Assembly: GCA_023142215.1 (NCBI GenBank)
Contig: JAGLJW010000013.1
Span: 1-35,560, forward strand
Origin: Candidatus Parcubacteria bacterium
Lineage (GTDB): Bacteria > Patescibacteriota > Patescibacteriia > Patescibacteriales > UBA12075
Direction: 5' to 3'
Length of the DNA stretch: 35,560 nucleotides
Shown: positions 13,695 to 33,977 of the stretch, one piece after another
How positions within the stretch are numbered: the stretch's first letter is position 1
Layout: every line of letters begins with the position of its first letter
The notes under the pieces: model-generated
The model's input: the letters and a program-made list of their open reading frames with translations, nothing else
Databases searched by the model: none
What the model was told of the DNA's origin: nothing
Position numbers and translations under genes: made by a program

Positions 13695-14573
13695 ATGGCA
13701 AAACAAATAGGTATATATAAAAAAATAGATTTTCTTCGTGAAAGATATTATAAAGTGGTTATAGGCAAAGAAGCTCTTATGAAAATAATTTCTGAAACTG
13801 AGGTTGCGGAACAAGTATACAATTCTAACGCTATTGAAAATAGCACATTAACACTTGAAGAAACAGAAAAAATTCTTTTGCAGATTGATTTAGAACGATA
13901 TATTAGTGAACGAGAATTATTTGAAGCTAAAAATTTAGCTCGTGTTGTGGAATATACAAATAAGCGTGCTAAGGATCAAGAATTAACATCTGATGTTGTT
14001 TTGTTGTTACATAAAATGTTAATTTCAAATATTAGAGATGATATTGCGGGAAGGTTCAGAAATAATAATGAGTTTGTGCGAGTAGGAAACCATATAGCTC
14101 CAGCGCCACAAGAAGTTGCGTTATTAATTGAAAAAATGTTTACAGAATATAAATCCAAGAGTTCTGAAAGTATCATAAAAAGGATTGCAAAACTACATCT
14201 TAATTTTGAGTATATACATCCGTTTGTGGATGGTAATGGTCGTATTGGTAGAGTGCTTAATAATTATTTATTAATTAGAGAAGGTTTTGTGCCGATAAAC
14301 ATTAGGGTTATTGATCGCGTAGAATATTATGAAGCATTTCGTGAGTTTGATATAAAGGGCAAGACTGTTATTATGGAGGAGATTGTAGGTAAGGCTTTAA
14401 CCAATAGTTATCACAAAAGATTAGCGTATTTAGAAAGTAAAAAAATTATAACTCTTTCTGAATATGCGAAAAATAGTAAATCTTCTTTCTCAAATTTATT
14501 AAATAAAGCGAAAAGGCAAACCATTCCTGCTTTTCGTGAAAAAGGAGTTTGGAAGATTGGTGTTGAGGTTTAA
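13695..14573 (+). CDS. Fic/DOC family protein (AMPylase-type) with N-terminal inhibitory-helix motif and C-terminal excisionase-like HTH
   Basis: Canonical Fic motif HPFVDGNGRIGR. An (S/T)xxxE(G/N) motif, SNAIEN, lies upstream of it in the same chain. The C-terminus ITLSEYAKNSKSSFSNLLNKAKRQTIPAFREKGVWKIG fits the excisionase/MerR-type HTH pattern. Confidence 0.85.
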   Translation: MAKQIGIYKKIDFLRERYYKVVIGKEALMKIISETEVAEQVYNSNAIENSTLTLEETEKILLQIDLERYISERELFEAKNLARVVEYTNKRAKDQELTSDVVLLLHKMLISNIRDDIAGRFRNNNEFVRVGNHIAPAPQEVALLIEKMFTEYKSKSSESIIKRIAKLHLNFEYIHPFVDGNGRIGRVLNNYLLIREGFVPINIRVIDRVEYYEAFREFDIKGKTVIMEEIVGKALTNSYHKRLAYLESKKIITLSEYAKNSKSSFSNLLNKAKRQTIPAFREKGVWKIGVEV

Positions 14574-14621
14574 ATATTGATACAATACAATTAATATATA
14601 GATGAATTTTATTTTAAGTTT

Positions 14622-14674
14622 ATATAAACAAATAACAAAAATAAAAGTTTATTATTTGTTTATATGAATTTTTT
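14622..14674 (+). terminator. AT-rich hairpin plus T-run downstream of the Fic gene
   Basis: ATATAAACAAATAA (14622-14635) pairs perfectly with TTATTTGTTTATAT (14652-14665), then GAATTTTTT follows. Confidence 0.4.
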
Positions 14675-14711
14675 GCTAATTATAGTGAAATTTTGAAAAT
14701 GGTGTAAAGTG

Positions 14712-14740
14712 TTGACAAAGGAGCTGTATTAGTATAAACT
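14712..14740 (+). promoter_or_regulatory. Candidate promoter for the ribosomal-protein cluster
   Basis: TTGACA (14712-14717) followed by either TATAAA (14733-14738, 15-nt spacer) or TAAACT (14735-14740, 17-nt spacer). This would give a ~265-nt leader before rplC. Confidence 0.35.
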
Positions 14741-15007
14741 TGTTGTAGTGATAGTTCACTAAATAAATAAGCTTTATTAAAAGGTTGTTTTAAAAACTCT
14801 TTTAATAGATTGTATCTAAATAAAAGAAAGTATTTTAACGGCTTTAGTAAAGAAGAAAGGATTTTAAATTTCAACAGAACTAAAAAGTATTGATATGTTT
14901 TTAAAACATGTTTATTTGCTGGGTTTTGTTACTCCAGTTTTTTTGTATTAAAATCCAAATTATTGACCGCTGAAAAGTTAAATAACTTATTTAAGTCATT
15001 AGAAAAT

Positions 15008-15670
15008 ATGAAATTTATTTTAGGGAAAAAAATTGAAATGACACAAGTTTGGAAGGACGAAAAGTCAATTGCAATAACTAAAATCCAAGCCGGACCATGT
15101 GGAGTGGTTCAAGTAAAGAATGAAGAAAAAGATGGTTATAAAGCAGTTCAAATTGGTTTTGGAATTAAGAAAGAAAAGAATATTAAAAAACCACAAAAAG
15201 GACATTTAAAAGGATTAGAAAATTTTAGATATTTAAAAGAGTTCAGAATTACAGATGAGCAAGTCAAGAAAGGTGATATTATTAACGTTTCAAGTTTTGC
15301 AGTTGGTGATATTGTAAGAGTTGCAGGGACATCAAAAGGTAAAGGTTTTCAAGGTGTTGTTAAAAGATGGGGATTCGCAGGACAAATTAAGACTCACGGT
15401 AATAAAGATCAACTTAGAATGCCTGGTTCAATTGGTGCGACTGGTCCAGCTCATGTATTTAAAGGTACAAGAATGGGTGGAAGAATGGGAGGCGAAAGAG
15501 TTACAACAACAAATTTAGAAATCATTGATATAGATTTAGATAACAACATTATTTCCATTAAAGGTTCTGTACCAGGATCAAGAAATGGTTTAGTTGAAAT
15601 TAAAGGTGAAGGTGAATTGAAAGTTATTGTAAAGGAAGAAAAGAATGATAATGCGAATGCAACGAATTAA
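15008..15670 (+). CDS. rplC: 50S ribosomal protein uL3
   Basis: MKFILGKKIEMTQVW..., GKGFQGVVKRWGFAGQ. The ATG at 15008 is preferred over the listed upstream TTG at 14963. The last codons (NANATN) lie inside a repeat element. Confidence 0.93.
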   Translation: MKFILGKKIEMTQVWKDEKSIAITKIQAGPCGVVQVKNEEKDGYKAVQIGFGIKKEKNIKKPQKGHLKGLENFRYLKEFRITDEQVKKGDIINVSSFAVGDIVRVAGTSKGKGFQGVVKRWGFAGQIKTHGNKDQLRMPGSIGATGPAHVFKGTRMGGRMGGERVTTTNLEIIDIDLDNNIISIKGSVPGSRNGLVEIKGEGELKVIVKEEKNDNANATN

Positions 15671-15712
15671 TATGCGAATTCCGCGAATTAATTAAATGCT
15701 AATGATTATAAA
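15649..15712 (+). repeat. 64-nt GCGAAT-word element, copy 1 (overlaps rplC 3' end)
   Basis: TAATGCGAATGCAACGAATTAATATGCGAATTCCGCGAATTAATTAAATGCTAATGATTATAAA matches 22163-22226 at 60 of 64 positions by my manual alignment. A further partial copy lies at about 15724-15761. Confidence 0.85.
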
Positions 15713-15822
15713 ATGATAATGTAAATGCTGCGAATTAGATTAAATGCGAATGATTTATAAATTTGTAATTCGTGTAGTTATAAAAATTTGCGGAATTTGC
15801 ATATAATTCGCAGATTAGCATT
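15650..15822 (+). other. About 170-nt composite RNA hairpin spanning the whole rplC-rplD spacer
   Basis: The helices are 15671-15689 with 15785-15803 (19 bp, two G-U), 15663-15669 with 15804-15810 (7 bp), and 15650-15658 with 15814-15822 (9 positions, 1 mismatch). The rplC stop codon is inside the stem and the rplD AUG is 10 nt after the stem base. Confidence 0.6.
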
Positions 15823-15831
15823 ATAAAAAAA

Positions 15832-16491
15832 ATGAAAATTAAAGTTTACAATAAAAAAGCAGAAAAAGTTTCAGATTCTGAAATTTCAGATAAAGTTTTT
15901 GGATTAGATGTTAATGAATCTTTGATTCATCAAGCTTACGTGAGACAGATCAGCAACGAAAGACAGATTTTGGCCCATACCAAAGATAGAAGTGAAGTTA
16001 GAGGTGGTGGAGCTAAACCATGGGCACAAAAGGGAACTGGTAGAGCTAGACATGGTTCAAAACGATCTCCGATTTGGATTGGTGGTGGTGTAACTTTTGG
16101 TCCTAGCAAAGATAGGAATTTTAGTAAAAATATTAATAAGAAAATGAGACAAAAGGCATTATTGATGGTAGTTTCTGATAGGGTAAAAGATTCTGCTATG
16201 TTGGTGATGGAAGATATAAATATGGATGAATATAAGACTAAAATTTTTAATGAAATAGTTACCAGTTTTGAAAAAAAGGTAATTAAACTTGATGAGAAAA
16301 AGAAAAGAAGTATTTTAGTTATTAATGATAAAAAAGACGATAAAGTAAAAAATTCAGGACGAAATTTAACGGGAGTAAAAGTTATTAATTTAGATAATAT
16401 TAATATTGTAGATTTGTTAAAATATAGAAATTTGATAATAACACAAGAATGTGTTAAACAATTAGAAGAGAGATATGTGACAAAGAATTAA
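15832..16491 (+). CDS. rplD: 50S ribosomal protein uL4
   Basis: RGGGAKPWAQKGTGRARHGSKRSPIWIGGGVTFGP is the uL4 hallmark. Confidence 0.93.
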   Translation: MKIKVYNKKAEKVSDSEISDKVFGLDVNESLIHQAYVRQISNERQILAHTKDRSEVRGGGAKPWAQKGTGRARHGSKRSPIWIGGGVTFGPSKDRNFSKNINKKMRQKALLMVVSDRVKDSAMLVMEDINMDEYKTKIFNEIVTSFEKKVIKLDEKKKRSILVINDKKDDKVKNSGRNLTGVKVINLDNINIVDLLKYRNLIITQECVKQLEERYVTKN

Positions 16492-16525
16492 GAATTAAGA
16501 TTTAAGATTGAAGATTCGCTCCGTC

Positions 16526-16541
16526 TCCGCCAGCTGGCGGA
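16526..16541. repeat. Perfect 16-bp GC-rich palindrome TCCGCCAGCTGGCGGA
   Basis: Read directly from the sequence. It shares the core CGCCAGCTGGCG with 23518-23533, 32918-32933 and 32965-32980. The flank CTCCGCCAGCTGGCGGAYGGYGAAAAGA is shared with the 32965 copy. Confidence 0.85.
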
Positions 16542-16563
16542 TGGTGAAAAGAATTAAAATAAT

Positions 16564-16998
16564 ATGGCATTATTTGGGAAAAAAGATAAAAATAAAACTG
16601 AAGAAAAGAAAGATGTGAAAAAAGTTTCAGCGAAAAAAACTGTGGCTAAGAAAGATGCGAAAAAGATTGAAAAAGAACCTGTTAAAGCTAAAGCTAAAAC
16701 TGAAAAGAAATTTGGTACAGCTTATAAGATTTTGATAAAACCTTTGGTAACGGAAAAAGTTGCGAAAGAGACTGAATTAGGTAAGTATGTTTTTGAAGTT
16801 TCTGTTGATGCTAACAAAGTTGAAGTATCTAAGGCTATTAAAGAAGTTTATGGAATGAAAGCAGTTAAAGTAAATATTGTAAATATGGAAGGAAAAAGAA
16901 AAAGACTTGGCAGAAGTTCAGGAAGAAGAAAAGACTGGAAAAAGGCAATTGTTACTTTAGAGAAAGGAAAGAAAATTAATGTTTATGAAGGAGTTTAG
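16564..16998 (+). CDS. rplW: 50S ribosomal protein uL23 with about 55-aa Lys-rich N-terminal extension
   Basis: The core is YKILIKPLVTEKVAKETELGKYVFEV...AIKEVYGMKAVKVNIVN. An internal start cannot be excluded. Confidence 0.85.
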   Translation: MALFGKKDKNKTEEKKDVKKVSAKKTVAKKDAKKIEKEPVKAKAKTEKKFGTAYKILIKPLVTEKVAKETELGKYVFEVSVDANKVEVSKAIKEVYGMKAVKVNIVNMEGKRKRLGRSSGRRKDWKKAIVTLEKGKKINVYEGV

Positions 16999-17939: not shown

Positions 17940-17941
17940 CC

Positions 17942-17969
17942 ACGTAACACATAACACATAACACATAAC
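17942..17969 (+). repeat. Heptanucleotide tandem repeat (ACGTAAC, then ACATAAC x3)
   Basis: Read directly from the sequence. An inverted copy ATGTGTTATG lies at 18007-18016. The same heptamer array occurs inside der at 28245-28293 on the other strand. Confidence 0.85.
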
Positions 17970-18024
17970 AAAATTGATATTTATAATTTATTACGTGTTC
18001 CATGCTATGTGTTATGAGAGAAAT

Positions 18025-19615: not shown

Positions 19616-19622
19616 TTTTGAA

Positions 19623-19710
19623 AGATTCTTGTGATAGTTAAGATTTTTAAGATTCTTGAGATAATTTTTTAAAAAAGTTGTCCTAAGAATCTTAAAAATC
19701 CTAAGAATCT
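19623..19710 (+). other. Bipartite hairpin filling the rpsC-rplP spacer
   Basis: The inner stem is a perfect 16 bp, GATTTTTAAGATTCTT (19642-19657) with AAGAATCTTAAAAATC (19685-19700). The outer stem is 8 bp, AGATTCTT (19623-19630) with AAGAATCT (19703-19710). Confidence 0.7.
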
Positions 19711-19733
19711 CAAGGTTCTTAAGTGAACAAAAT

Positions 19734-21160: not shown

Positions 21161-21170
21161 ATTAATAAAC

Positions 21171-21242
21171 CGTAGATGCGTCCCCGCTGGGGCGTATCAA
21201 ACAACAAAAAACGTAAATGCGTCCCCGCTGGGGCGTATCAAA
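21171..21242 (+). repeat. Two direct 31-nt copies of CGTARATGCGTCCCCGCTGGGGCGTATCAAA (41-nt period)
   Basis: Copies at 21171-21201 and 21212-21242 differ at one base. Each contains a 10-bp hairpin GATGCGTCCC / GGGGCGTATC (two wobble pairs) with loop CGCT. Confidence 0.9.
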
Positions 21243-21268
21243 TAATCAAATATTTACGAATTAAGAAT

Positions 21269-21616
21269 ATGAAAATAAAACGTAATGATAAAGTTAAAAT
21301 ATTAGCGGGTAAAGATAAGGGTAAAATTGGAAAAGTTTTACAGGTTTTTCCTGATGGCAATAAGGCGAGTGTTGAAGGTATTAATTTGTTAATTAAACAT
21401 TTAAGACCACAGAAGCAGGGAGAAAAAGGTCAAAGAATTGAATTTCCAGCACCAATGAATATTTCAAACTTGATGATTATTTGTCCGAAGTGTAATAAGG
21501 AAACAAGAGTTGAGTATACTATTGTTAAGAATGAAGATGATACTTCAGCAGATTCAGTACGAGTAAAAAATAAGAAATTTAGAAAATGTAAAAAATGTCA
21601 AGAAGTTATTGATTAG
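21269..21616 (+). CDS. rplX: 50S ribosomal protein uL24 with four-Cys (zinc-ribbon-like) C-terminal part
   Basis: KOW motif KVKILAGKDKGKIGKV, then CPKC...CKKC. The ATG at 21269 is preferred because the listed 21176 start reads through the GC hairpin repeats. Confidence 0.9.
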   Translation: MKIKRNDKVKILAGKDKGKIGKVLQVFPDGNKASVEGINLLIKHLRPQKQGEKGQRIEFPAPMNISNLMIICPKCNKETRVEYTIVKNEDDTSADSVRVKNKKFRKCKKCQEVID

Positions 21617-21628
21617 CATAAAGTAAAT

Positions 21629-22162
21629 ATGATTTTAAAAAAATATAAAAAAGAAATAATACCAAAGTTGAAGAAAAAGTTTGGATATAAAAATATTCAT
21701 GAAGTTCCTAAATTAATTAAAGTAGTTATTAATGTTGGATTTGGAAGACATACGAAAGAAAAAGCCTATATTAAAAATGTTGTTGATTCACTTACAAGAA
21801 TTAGTGGTCAAAAACCAATTTTAACAAAAGCTAGATTGTCAATTTCATCATTTAAAATAAGAGAAGGAATGACAATAGGTGCTTGTGTTACTTTACGTGG
21901 GACTAGGATGTATGATTTTATAGAAAAATTGGTTGGAACGACTTTTCCCAGAATCAGAGATTTTAGAGGTATTGAAGTTAAGAATGTAGATAGGACTGGT
22001 AATTTAACGGTTGGTTTTAAAGAACATTTAGCTTTTCCTGAAGTAAGACCTGATGAAGTTGATAATATATTTGGATTAGAAGTAAGTATTGCAACGACAG
22101 CCAAGAATCACGATGAAGGATTAGAATTATTTAAATTAATGGGATTTCCATTTAAGAAATAA
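21629..22162 (+). CDS. rplE: 50S ribosomal protein uL5
   Basis: VPKLIKVVINVGFG..., FPRIRDFRG..., GLEVSIATTAK. Confidence 0.93.
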   Translation: MILKKYKKEIIPKLKKKFGYKNIHEVPKLIKVVINVGFGRHTKEKAYIKNVVDSLTRISGQKPILTKARLSISSFKIREGMTIGACVTLRGTRMYDFIEKLVGTTFPRIRDFRGIEVKNVDRTGNLTVGFKEHLAFPEVRPDEVDNIFGLEVSIATTAKNHDEGLELFKLMGFPFKK

Positions 22163-22226
22163 TAATGCGAATGCAGCGAATTAATATGCGAATGCTGCGA
22201 ATTAATTAAATGCGAATGATTATAAA
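22163..22226 (+). repeat. 64-nt GCGAAT-word element, copy 2
   Basis: It starts immediately after the rplE stop codon and matches 15649-15712 at 60 of 64 positions (manual alignment). Confidence 0.85.
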
Positions 22227-22249
22227 TAATTTGCATTATAGTAAAGTAT

Positions 22250-23515: not shown

Positions 23516-23560
23516 GATTCGCCAGCTGGCGAATAGATTTAAGAATTAAGATTTAAGAAT
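23516..23560 (+). repeat. Composite repeat: palindrome TTCGCCAGCTGGCGAA plus two AGATTTAAGAAT words
   Basis: The 31-mer GATTCGCCAGCTGGCGAATAGATTTAAGAAT (23516-23546) is identical to 32916-32946. A second 12-mer lies at 23549-23560. Confidence 0.9.
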
Positions 23561-27323: not shown

Positions 27324-28859
27324 TTATTTATTTTTTCTATTTTTCATTTTTTCCTTATTTTTTTCTAATACATCCCACGAATCTTCTTCGCTCATCCCGT
27401 GGATTTTTTTATTTTTTGTAACGCTTACTGAAACAGGAGTTCCGAAGAAATCAAATTCTTTTCGTAATTTATTTTGAATAAATCTAACATAAGAGTCGGA
27501 AAGAGAATCTTTAGAGCCGATACGAATTTGAAAAGCTGGGGGGTTGGTTCTTGTCTGTTTTAATTCATAAATATATGGATATTTTGTTCCGCCTGCTTTT
27601 GTTGGTTTGTGTTGTTTGATTAATTTTTTTAAAAATCTAGTTAAATAATTTTGATTAATTTTCGTTTTTCGTTTTTCGTCAATTTTCAAAATAATATCAA
27701 ATATTTTTTTTACTTTTTCGCCTGTAAGAGCTGAAACAAATTGAATAGGTGCCCAAGTTGCGAAAGGTAAATGACCATAAATTTCTTGTTTAGCTGATTT
27801 AGTATCATGATCTTCTATTAAATCCCATTTATTGCCAACAATAATTAAACCAATATTCCTAGTAATAATTTCTTCAACGATTTTAGAATCTTGATGAGTA
27901 AGTCCATCTTCAACATCTAAAATTAATAAAGCAATGTCAGCTTTATTCAAAATTTTAAGAGTTCTATCAATACTATGACTTGCAAGAGTATTTTTAGTCT
28001 TAGATTTTTTTGTATTTTTTTGTCCTTGTTTGCTAATTCCAGCAGTGTCAATTAAATTTATTTCTTTATCTTTGTAGCTAATCTTAGTATCATTCGGCTC
28101 ACGAGTTGTATGAGCAATTGGACTAACAATAATTTTTTCTTCACCAAGAATTGAATTAACCAAACTTGATTTTCCAACATTCGGCTTACCAACAATACAA
28201 ACATTTATCATGTTAGATTCTTGATTTAGAATCTCTTCTTCTTTGTTATGTGTTATGTGTTGTGTGTTATGTGTCGCGTGTTGTGTGTTATGTGTTTTAA
28301 GCTTTTTTACAATTAAATCCAACAAATCACCAGTTCCTGATCCAGTAGAAGCTGAAATTAAATACGGTTTACCAAGCCCCAGTTTATTAAATGCACTAGC
28401 TTCGTTTCTAAGATTGAAATTATCAGTTTTATTAGCAACGAGTAAAGTTTTATCTTTTAATTCATTTCTTTTTTGAATTTCTTTAGCAATATTTTGGTCT
28501 TGTGGTAAAATTCCGTCATGTGAATTAACTAAGTATAATATTAAATCTGCTTGCTCTAAATAATTTTCAGCGAGTTGTTGAACTTTTGTATCTAAATCGG
28601 CGAGTGAATTAATTTGTTTAATTTTTTTCTTTTTATTTTTGAATAAATTACTGATTTCAATAATTCCGCCAGTGTCAATAATTTCAAATTGACATCTATT
28701 CCATTCAACTGTGCCAGTATTAACATCGCGAGTAGTTCCATGAATATCACTAACCAAGGCAGAATGTTTTTCTGTTAAAGTGTTAAAGAGAGTAGATTTT
28801 CCGACATTGGTACGACCGAAAAGGACTACTTTTGGTAAATTGTTTGTTTGTTCTTTCAT
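27324..28859 (-). CDS. der: Ribosome-associated GTPase Der (EngA) with repeat-encoded linker insert
   Basis: Two G domains (GRTNVGKST...DTGG...NKTD and GKPNVGKSS...DTAG...NKWD) plus a KH-like C-terminus. The linker reads KTHNTQHATHNTQHITHNKEEE. Confidence 0.92.
   Translation of the reverse strand: MKEQTNNLPKVVLFGRTNVGKSTLFNTLTEKHSALVSDIHGTTRDVNTGTVEWNRCQFEIIDTGGIIEISNLFKNKKKKIKQINSLADLDTKVQQLAENYLEQADLILYLVNSHDGILPQDQNIAKEIQKRNELKDKTLLVANKTDNFNLRNEASAFNKLGLGKPYLISASTGSGTGDLLDLIVKKLKTHNTQHATHNTQHITHNKEEEILNQESNMINVCIVGKPNVGKSSLVNSILGEEKIIVSPIAHTTREPNDTKISYKDKEINLIDTAGISKQGQKNTKKSKTKNTLASHSIDRTLKILNKADIALLILDVEDGLTHQDSKIVEEIITRNIGLIIVGNKWDLIEDHDTKSAKQEIYGHLPFATWAPIQFVSALTGEKVKKIFDIILKIDEKRKTKINQNYLTRFLKKLIKQHKPTKAGGTKYPYIYELKQTRTNPPAFQIRIGSKDSLSDSYVRFIQNKLRKEFDFFGTPVSVSVTKNKKIHGMSEEDSWDVLEKNKEKMKNRKNK
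28245..28293 (-). repeat. Seven heptanucleotide units (ACATAAC family) in frame inside der
   Basis: The plus-strand units are GTTATGT x4, GTTGTGT x2 and GTCGCGT x1. The 20-mer AACACATAACACATAACAAA is identical between 17953-17972 (plus) and 28242-28261 (minus). Confidence 0.85.
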
Positions 28860-32843: not shown

Positions 32844-32874
32844 ATTAATTTTGTAAAATTTAAAATAGTTTAAC

Positions 32875-32900
32875 AAAACAGACATTTTTGTCTGTTTTGT
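32875..32900 (+). terminator. Intrinsic terminator after rpsU
   Basis: AAAACAGACA / TGTCTGTTTT stem (10 bp) with a TTTT loop. The 3' arm runs into a T-tract. Confidence 0.65.
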
Positions 32901-32915
32901 GCTATAGTATAATTA

Positions 32916-32980
32916 GATTCGCCAGCTGGCGAATAGATTTAAGAATAAAGAATTAAGATTTGCCTCCGCCAGCTGGCGGA
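32916..32980 (+). repeat. Composite repeat with two CGCCAGCTGGCG palindromes and AGATTTAAGAAT words
   Basis: TTCGCCAGCTGGCGAA at 32918-32933, AGATTTAAGAAT at 32935-32946, TCCGCCAGCTGGCGGA at 32965-32980. Each half matches a spacer in the ribosomal cluster (23516 and 16521 respectively). Confidence 0.9.
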
Positions 32981-33060
32981 CGGCGAAAAGATTTAATAAT
33001 AAGATTTATATTGTTGTAATTTGTATTAGATTAATAATTTAGCAATATAATTGTATATTT

Positions 33061-33777: not shown

Positions 33778-33889
33778 GAAATATAGAATTAAATTTAAAA
33801 AAATTGATTATTTATTGAATTTTAACTTTTTATACTGTGCATTTCTTTGTGGATTAACTAAAATAAGCAGATTGTCAAGACCTTGTCTA

Positions 33890-33938
33890 ACGCTATATCT
33901 TGTGGTATAGTTAAATTAACTACCACAAGATATAGTGT
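33890..33938. promoter_or_regulatory. Pair of NrdR boxes overlapping a candidate promoter
   Basis: ACGCTATATCTTGTGG (33890-33905) and CCACAAGATATAGTGT (33923-33938) match the published 16-bp NrdR-box palindrome acaCwAtATaTwGtgt at 13 and 14 positions. Their centres are 33 bp apart. TTGTCA (33872-33877)-N16-TATATC (33894-33899) overlaps box 1. Confidence 0.7.
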
Positions 33939-33977
33939 TAGTTAGTTTAAAGAAAAAAGTAATATTTATTAACTTTA

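Follow-up and report, generated by a model that had tools for sequence, protein, structure and literature searches.

The spacer between the ribosomal-protein genes rplC (uL3) and rplD (uL4) in a 35,560-nucleotide (nt) stretch from a Candidatus Parcubacteria bacterium (assembly GCA_023142215.1, contig JAGLJW010000013.1, positions 1 to 35,560 of the forward strand; here referred to as the window) folds into a very stable hairpin. Sequence comparisons show that this hairpin is one copy of a dispersed palindromic repeat built of GCGAAT words, and it is probably not a device evolved for this gene pair. We favour the reading that a palindromic insertion, resembling REP sequences, miniature inverted-repeat transposable elements (MITEs) and short tandemly repeated repetitive (STRR) sequences and co-transcribed with its neighbours, filled a once-short spacer and rewrote the tail of uL3. 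For the gene pair itself the outcome is deflationary, as a rod joining stop to start would simply follow from a palindromic repeat landing in a short junction. The family is of more interest: it has an ordered module and conserved ends, is patchy across lineages and apparently homogenised within genomes, comes with no recognisable transposase, and turns up again and again at the same junctions and, in one protein, at the same loop.

Fold of the rplC-rplD spacer

The region 15640-15840 was folded as plus-strand RNA with RNAfold and compared with 200 dinucleotide shuffles. The native sequence reached -50.1 kcal/mol against a shuffle mean of -32.2 (sd 3.5), which gives z = -5.17, and 0 of the 200 shuffles were as stable. 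The z-scores given elsewhere in this text come from scripts using mononucleotide shuffles; the dinucleotide shuffles back the values for the rplC-rplD hairpin. The minimum-energy structure contains the following helices:

15648-15654 paired with 15818-15824, 7 bp
15656-15658 paired with 15814-15816, 3 bp
15663-15669 paired with 15804-15810, 7 bp
15671-15688 paired with 15786-15803, 18 bp with two G-U pairs (the long helix)

Pair probabilities in the long stem are 0.99-1.00, and a nineteenth pair, 15689/15785, has p = 0.78; this near-perfect helix of 18-19 bp runs through a 1-nt bulge into the 7-bp helix below it. An earlier note, made from the letters of the window, had described the spacer as one hairpin of about 170 nt. 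The hairpin is real, with helix coordinates that were correct to within 2 nt and a pair probability of about 0.99, and the long rod is present, but the structure is actually an outer stem plus a nested inner stem, the latter formed by a partial second copy of the repeat at 15716-15782. The parts of the locus are as follows:

15008-15670, plus strand, rplC (uL3; NCBIfam TIGR03625, 6.7e-70), starting with the ATG at 15008
15648-15824, no strand assigned, palindromic element of GCGAAT words, 177 nt, delimited from the fold and from nhmmer matches
15648-15712, plus strand, 5′ arm, GCGAAT/ACGAAT words arrayed with a super-period of 21 nt (9 + 12)
15716-15782, plus strand, nested partial copy forming the inner hairpin (nhmmer match 15716-15752; copy at 15712-15737, 85%)
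15783-15824, plus strand, 3′ arm of ATTTGC/ATTCGC words
15825-15831, plus strand, unpaired A-run linker before the rplD ATG, matching the A-rich context found genome-wide at -5/-6 of starts
15832-16491, plus strand, rplD (uL4; NCBIfam TIGR03953, 6.9e-62)

The element ends are ATAATGCGAAT at 15648-15658 and ATTAGCATTAT at 15814-15824. A profile of the family half-element, searched with nhmmer, matched 15648-15705 on the plus strand (E = 8e-11) and 15825-15783 on the minus strand (E = 9e-8). The TIGR03625 match stops 21 residues short of the rplC stop, and the repeat element supplies the last seven codons of rplC (D N A N A T N) as well as the rplC stop codon. The spacer measures 161 nt. The stop-to-start geometry described in the earlier note holds, with the rplC stop TAA (15668-15670) inside the stem and the rplD ATG (15832) in the unpaired A-run, 8 nt past the last pair at 15824.

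The same note had treated the G-U pairs as valid in the sense RNA only. By direct reading of the sequence, G15676-U15798 and G15685-U15789 are the sole non-Watson-Crick pairs of the long helix, and they result from two C-to-T differences from the complement in the 3′ arm. The sense RNA does fold better than the antisense RNA (-50.1 versus -35.9 kcal/mol, a gap of 14 kcal/mol), and to this extent the claim is true. However, shuffled controls show a gap of 10.8 kcal/mol (-32.2 versus -21.4) from composition alone, so that about 11 of the 14 kcal/mol are compositional; the asymmetry gives no sign of a selected RNA, and the strand argument fails once composition is counted. All three forms are significant, with z = -5.2 for sense RNA, -4.25 for antisense RNA and -4.2 for single-stranded DNA. 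GC skew on the coding strand of the window is +0.3 to +0.5, and with such an excess of G over C, C-to-T changes that leave a G-U pair in the sense and an A-C mismatch in the antisense strand are the expected mutational pattern. In agreement with this skew, a survey of the co-directional spacers of 60-260 nt on contigs up to C65 of this genome, 254 in all and unstructured ones included, had the sense strand as the better folder in 163 and as the poorer in 53 (p = 7e-14).

In this genome, hairpins that span their spacer (z < -3, span > 70%) lie between co-directional genes in 32 of the 254 spacers, between convergent genes in 8 of 30 and between divergent genes in 3 of 35; translationally coupled pairs are not the only ones to have them. 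Single arms of the repeat present either strand as sense equally often (21 versus 21). When arms were combined into chimeras across genomes, about 90% of the folding energy was kept (-0.40 versus -0.44 kcal/mol per nt, p = 0.01), which indicates that pairing comes mostly from the shared word and that the fit between the arms of a given element is weak.

The repeat family in this genome and in its relatives

In the window, GCGAAT occurs 26 times against 9.3 expected and is concentrated in spacers. The 5′ arm lies within the segment 15644-15712, whose 69 nt match 22158-22226 in the spacer after rplE at 93% identity. Across the whole assembly (here G000; 1.19 Mb, 92 contigs, 29% GC), the half-element profile gave 16 matches at 10 loci, five of them palindromes and five single arms:

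22161-22239, plus strand, sister copy in the rplE-rpsN spacer; its left side has five words, and its short right end, ATTTGCATTAT, stands 10 nt ahead of the ATG of rpsN
Palindromic loci: rplC-rplD; rplE-rpsN; upstream of rpoB; frr to a rseP-like gene; tpiA-fba
Single-arm loci: before secA; before leuS; rplQ-rplM; after the gene at the end of contig C34; inside an open reading frame (ORF)

The ends ATAATGCGAAT and ATTCGCATTAT are common to all copies in this genome. For rplD, rpsN, rplM, secA, leuS, fba and the rseP-like gene, ATTCGCATTAT is separated from the ATG by 3-10 nt.

At contig C56 19071-19130, minus strand (L130:1072-1131), a half-element is translated in frame (NNNANSANYMRIPRIDKNAND). 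The protein that holds it is an O-antigen-ligase-like membrane protein of 518 aa, with the element in a loop. In the G016 orthologue (45% identical) the corresponding loop likewise holds a half-element (DNNANDANDLRMTRI), with a related one in G031/G032. Loop length differs among the genomes of the family, and the words are missing from the loop in array-free genomes.

To see whether the helix is kept, the orthologous junction was compared in 29 relatives whose uL4 is 50-65% identical. Their rplC-rplD spacers measure at most 40 nt in 16 cases, 41-70 nt in 8 and more than 100 nt in 5, and the GCGAAT array was found at the junction in 0 of the 29. Stop-to-start hairpins made of other words were present in two relatives (L006, z = -5.2; L025). 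By the refuting condition set in the earlier note, the specific helix is not conserved; analogous helices of other words do recur. The closest uL4 relatives, P0002, P0003 and P0004, have identities of 81%, 79% and 77%, and a second contig encodes the identical protein.

Two of the relatives, G015 and G012, have small opposite-strand ORFs between rplC and rplD, encoding a lipoprotein-like product of 78 aa and a membrane protein of 149 aa (L003:2250-2486 and L013:787-1236, respectively). We considered their long inserts as possible copies of the element and rejected them, as they consist of these unrelated ORFs instead. The uL3 of both genomes ends in a long, acidic and internally repetitive C-terminal tail.

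The rplQ-rplM junction is a hot spot. Among 25 genomes of the family (L131-L156) it is at most 25 nt long in 15, while G000, G013 and G017, from three genera, carry the GCGAAT element in differing forms and orientations, and G015, G011, G031 and G016 carry hairpins of other words. The G017 copy has extra small hairpins nested in its right arm. At one intergenic site with flanks 83-90% identical, the congeners G010 and G036 hold different word-palindromes: a 115-nt GCGAAT palindrome in the former (L164:636-750) versus a 267-nt insert around a palindrome of ATTTTCA words in the latter (L166; contig C52 13587-13855).

A strict three-word pattern was detected in 9 of the 25 genomes of the host's GTDB family (8 of 18 genera), with 0 for the reversed control, and alignment of the copies brings out a common ordered module about 57 nt long. 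The number of word pairs per family genome is patchy, from 0 to 22, with at least four genomes having none. Each array-rich genome prefers its own spacer between words: GAC in G016 (8/16), ATA in G006 (10/22) and TCT/TCC in the present genome (10/17). Such genome-specific signatures point to copying or homogenisation within genomes, not to independently conserved sites. Requiring the pattern plus the conserved end, 74 stretches were found among GTDB species representatives, nearly all in records of Patescibacteria and including Falkowbacteria, Kuenenbacteria, Sungiibacteriota, Liptonbacteria, Nealsonbacteria and Parcubacteria. In other genomes, start codons and stop codons adjoin the conserved outer end of the copies equally often, 21 times each. 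No description of a GCGAAT palindrome family was found in the literature searched on Patescibacteria or the Candidate Phyla Radiation (CPR).

Some element-bearing contigs have machine labels outside the phylum, namely Helicobacteraceae, Lysobacteraceae, Nanoarchaeia and Gammaproteobacteria (L056, L085, L088, L124), and third-party annotation (TPA) records labelled Gammaproteobacteria or Saccharibacteria also occur among L051-L124. These may be mislabelled or mis-binned Patescibacteria, or may reflect a real spread past the phylum.

Origin and possible roles of the element

On the reading favoured here, the element, with its nested second partial copy, would have been copied into a probably short rplC-rplD junction, where it would have replaced the end of rplC and made the present spacer. 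Since the palindrome fills the spacer, the transcript would fold as a rod joining the stop codon to the start region, and the geometry would be a by-product of insertion, not an adaptation of the gene pair. The element is probably tolerated, as its self-folding would leave the A-rich start region of rplD free. The rod may be cut by RNase III, and the earlier note's suggestion of a double-stranded processing site is plausible from the sequence; the genome has an RNase III gene (rnc, contig C58 24518-25171). The note's other proposal, a device coupling uL4 to uL3 translation, finds no support in conservation, because the repeat belongs to a dispersed family that is absent from this junction in 29 of 29 relatives and that also includes single arms, copies between convergent or divergent genes and a copy within an ORF. 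The premise of an organism without Shine-Dalgarno (SD) sequences was roughly right, in that the genome is SD-poor, with AGGAG at -20..-5 in 51 of 750 genes; the start context is A-rich at -5/-6 with T at -1. No small-subunit rRNA gene was found in the assembly.

As for likeness to known repeats, Rickettsia palindromic elements (RPE) are palindromic repeats inserted in frame in protein genes and translated. The tail of uL3 and the loop of the 518-aa membrane protein are comparable in-frame copies; unlike RPE, most copies here are intergenic, the word-array arms differ and there is no sequence similarity. REP and REPIN sequences of Pseudomonas and enterobacteria are short, dispersed and non-coding, and the inverted doublet, which forms a long hairpin, is the replicating form (PMC3116915, PMC3337134). 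The present family resembles them in its hairpin-forming inverted doublets and single-arm remnants (five and five loci in G000, and the same mix elsewhere), in its lineage-specific variants forming within-genome populations and in being mostly intergenic. It differs in that the arms are tandem arrays of 6-nt words, whereas a REP is a single imperfect palindrome of 20-40 nt, in having no RAYT partner (Y1_Tnp is absent from the array-richest genomes), and in the position of its copies in operon junctions, one copy even being translated.

Correia repeat enclosed elements (CREE/NEMIS) of Neisseria are MITEs of about 100-160 nt with terminal inverted repeats, whose ends can make promoters and whose hairpin RNA can be cut or protected by RNase III (PMC2649163). 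In common with them, the GCGAAT element is of about that length, has terminal inverted repeats (ATAATGCGAAT and ATTCGCATTAT) in G000 and many genera, lies beside genes with which it is presumably co-transcribed, and comes and goes between close relatives. Presence and absence at orthologous sites is likewise MITE-like (rplC-rplD, 0 of 29 relatives; rplQ-rplM, 3 of 25; G010 and G036 differing). In contrast to Correia elements, it showed no recognisable TA target duplication and no cognate transposase, its arms hold several words, and its distribution is phylum-wide and not limited to one genus. The STRR or heptameric repeats of Nostoc/Calothrix and Xanthomonas are tandem short intergenic words, present for example in the pecE-pecF spacer, and include inverted pairs (PMC4692102). 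Tandem intergenic words, possible stem-loops and strong variation in length and sequence between close relatives are shared with them, and the words themselves are similar in shape (GGGAATC in STRR, GCGAAT here). On the other hand, the period here is 9/12 nt (occasionally 7-8, with a 21-nt super-unit) and not 7, and there are a fixed ordered module of about 57 nt, conserved ends and the same word across the phylum. The GCGAAT element is thus of the palindromic intergenic-repeat kind, and it lacks the RAYT link of REPINs and the plain period of heptamers, while a target duplication and a transposase, as needed for a MITE, were not demonstrated.

Several observations weigh against a purely insertional origin. 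No mobilising enzyme came out of the searches for Y1/RAYT and TnpB, other transposase families not having been searched, and the flanks of about nine full copies showed no consistent target-site duplication, AT-rich flanks being able to mask one of 2 nt. GCGAAT is exact across classes of the phylum, GC-richer genomes in which the inter-word spacers drift included; a word kept while its spacers drift suggests sequence-specific recognition by some factor, possibly regulatory and not selfish. Of 76 copies, 42 have their outer end at most 20 nt from a gene boundary, and the distances peak sharply at 5-8 nt before starts and at -4 or +1 nt at stops; either function or insertion into tiny spacers could account for this spacing. 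Finally, three of this genome's five palindromes fold better in the sense strand, the other two showing no preference.

Among the candidate mobilisers, Y1/RAYT was rejected for want of correlation with array content: in genomes 87-95% complete, Y1_Tnp (PF01797) had 0 matches in the array-richest G000, G013 and G006 and was present in the array-free G007, G009 and G005. TnpB was found in 0 of the 25 family genomes. An autonomous parent element was also considered and rejected, since the sole inward-facing pair of elements (L101) encloses ordinary ABC-transporter genes.

Perhaps the element was taken over at the RNA level as operon punctuation, serving as an RNase III processing or stabilising site between the rplC and rplD cistrons or, as the earlier note proposed, keeping the terminating ribosome close to the next AUG and so allowing reinitiation without an SD sequence. 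We regard this as unlikely, although the stability of the rod with its near-perfect helices, the AUG left unpaired, the SD-poor genome, the presence of rnc, which CPR bacteria generally retain (PMC12641178), and the recurrence of stop-to-start hairpins of unrelated words at operon junctions of relatives would all suit it, and the Correia elements, as repeats cut or protected by RNase III, offer a precedent (PMC2649163). The helix is not conserved at rplC-rplD, however, and single arms are oriented indifferently to transcription (21 versus 21). Hairpins fill convergent and divergent spacers too, the strand asymmetry is compositional, and complementarity of the arms beyond the shared word is weak.

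More speculatively, GCGAAT might be the site of a putative conserved Patescibacteria factor that copies or homogenises the palindromes, the elements having been co-opted as modular operon punctuation in SD-poor and regulator-poor genomes. A copy would then act as an RNase III or stability hairpin 3′ of one cistron and equip the following cistron with a start-proximal module (ATTCGCATTAT, 3-10 nt, ATG), a combination to which we give little credence; if true, it would be a new phylum-wide way to organise polycistronic expression. Processing or start sites at the elements, if seen in transcripts, would be relevant to the expression of long operons in ultra-small bacteria poor in SD sequences; otherwise, the family would be a new and clear example, from streamlined genomes, of selfish DNA of the REP/MITE type.

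A DNA-level cis-regulatory module, in which the words (9 + 12 bp, a two-turn super-period of 21 bp) are protein sites or the element is a portable promoter and the hairpin is incidental, appears improbable. The promoter variant would read the outward end as TTCGCA, about 17 nt, CATTAT and 3-10 nt to the ATG, giving short-leader or leaderless transcripts. Such a module would explain why the word is conserved phylum-wide while spacers drift with GC content and why ATTCGCATTAT precedes the ATG of seven genes in this genome by 3-10 nt and, in other genomes, stands ahead of 21 start codons, most often by 5-8 nt; ends of Correia elements do create promoters (PMC2649163). But a consensus promoter scan found nothing facing rplD in the spacer, and the same end is found next to stop codons just as often. 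The element is missing from at least four of the family's genomes, congeners swap in another word family at the same site, and the genome-specific spacer signatures fit copying and not independent conserved operators.

An origin in situ by replication slippage and fold-back template switching (the STRR or simple-sequence route), with no transfer between loci, would suit arms that are tandem arrays with internal 21-nt duplications, the many other spacers with arrays of locus-specific words, the lack of a transposase in the Y1/RAYT and TnpB searches and the heptamer arrays with inverted pairs of Xanthomonas and Nostoc, for which slippage was proposed (PMC4692102), but it is very improbable, because 93% identity over 69 nt with the rplE-rpsN copy, and the same ordered module of about 57 nt with its ends at 10 loci here and in many genera, call for copying or gene conversion between loci.

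Neighbouring genes and other spacer repeats

Two further candidates for the spacer were tried and rejected. A leader or autoregulatory RNA of a ribosomal-protein operon, such as the L4-binding S10 leader, has no Rfam match, the structure is absent at the junction in relatives, and rpsJ lies outside the cluster. For an intrinsic terminator, no terminator-like site was found in 14500-16700, and an A-run, not a U-tract, follows the stem. Over the whole window, a scan of Rfam at gathering score gave 0 matches and a search for tRNA and tmRNA gave none. The three sequencing runs listed as containing the stretch are all DNA runs from cold-seep metagenomes.

The gene rpsJ (S10), not found upstream of rplC, is located on another contig (C32 26290-26586) and is followed by a strong hairpin spacer of its own. 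Upstream of rplC are a Fic-domain gene (13695-14573) and a 430-nt non-coding stretch (14574-15007), within which a promoter-like TTGACA-17-TAAACT was noted at 14712-14740.

Other repeats occur in the spacers of the window. The perfect short palindromes ATTCGCCAGCTGGCGAAT and TCCGCCAGCTGGCGGA recur (23517-23534, 32917-32934, 16526-16541, 32965-32980), followed by word runs of the AAGAATTAAGATTT type; the ATTCGCCAGCTGGCGAAT palindrome has the GCGAAT word in both arms. At 21167-21248, where the ORF 21176-21616 of the ribosomal-protein cluster begins, a 41-nt unit is duplicated in tandem, each unit with a GCGTCCCCGCTGGGGCGT hairpin. Hairpins and arrays of other words (AAGATTCTT, CACATAAC, AACAATTAAC and others) were identified in the spacers at 19616-19733, 33819-33977, 32844-33060 and 17941-17972 / 28236-28297, the first two being particularly strong (z = -7.7 and -7.4, respectively).

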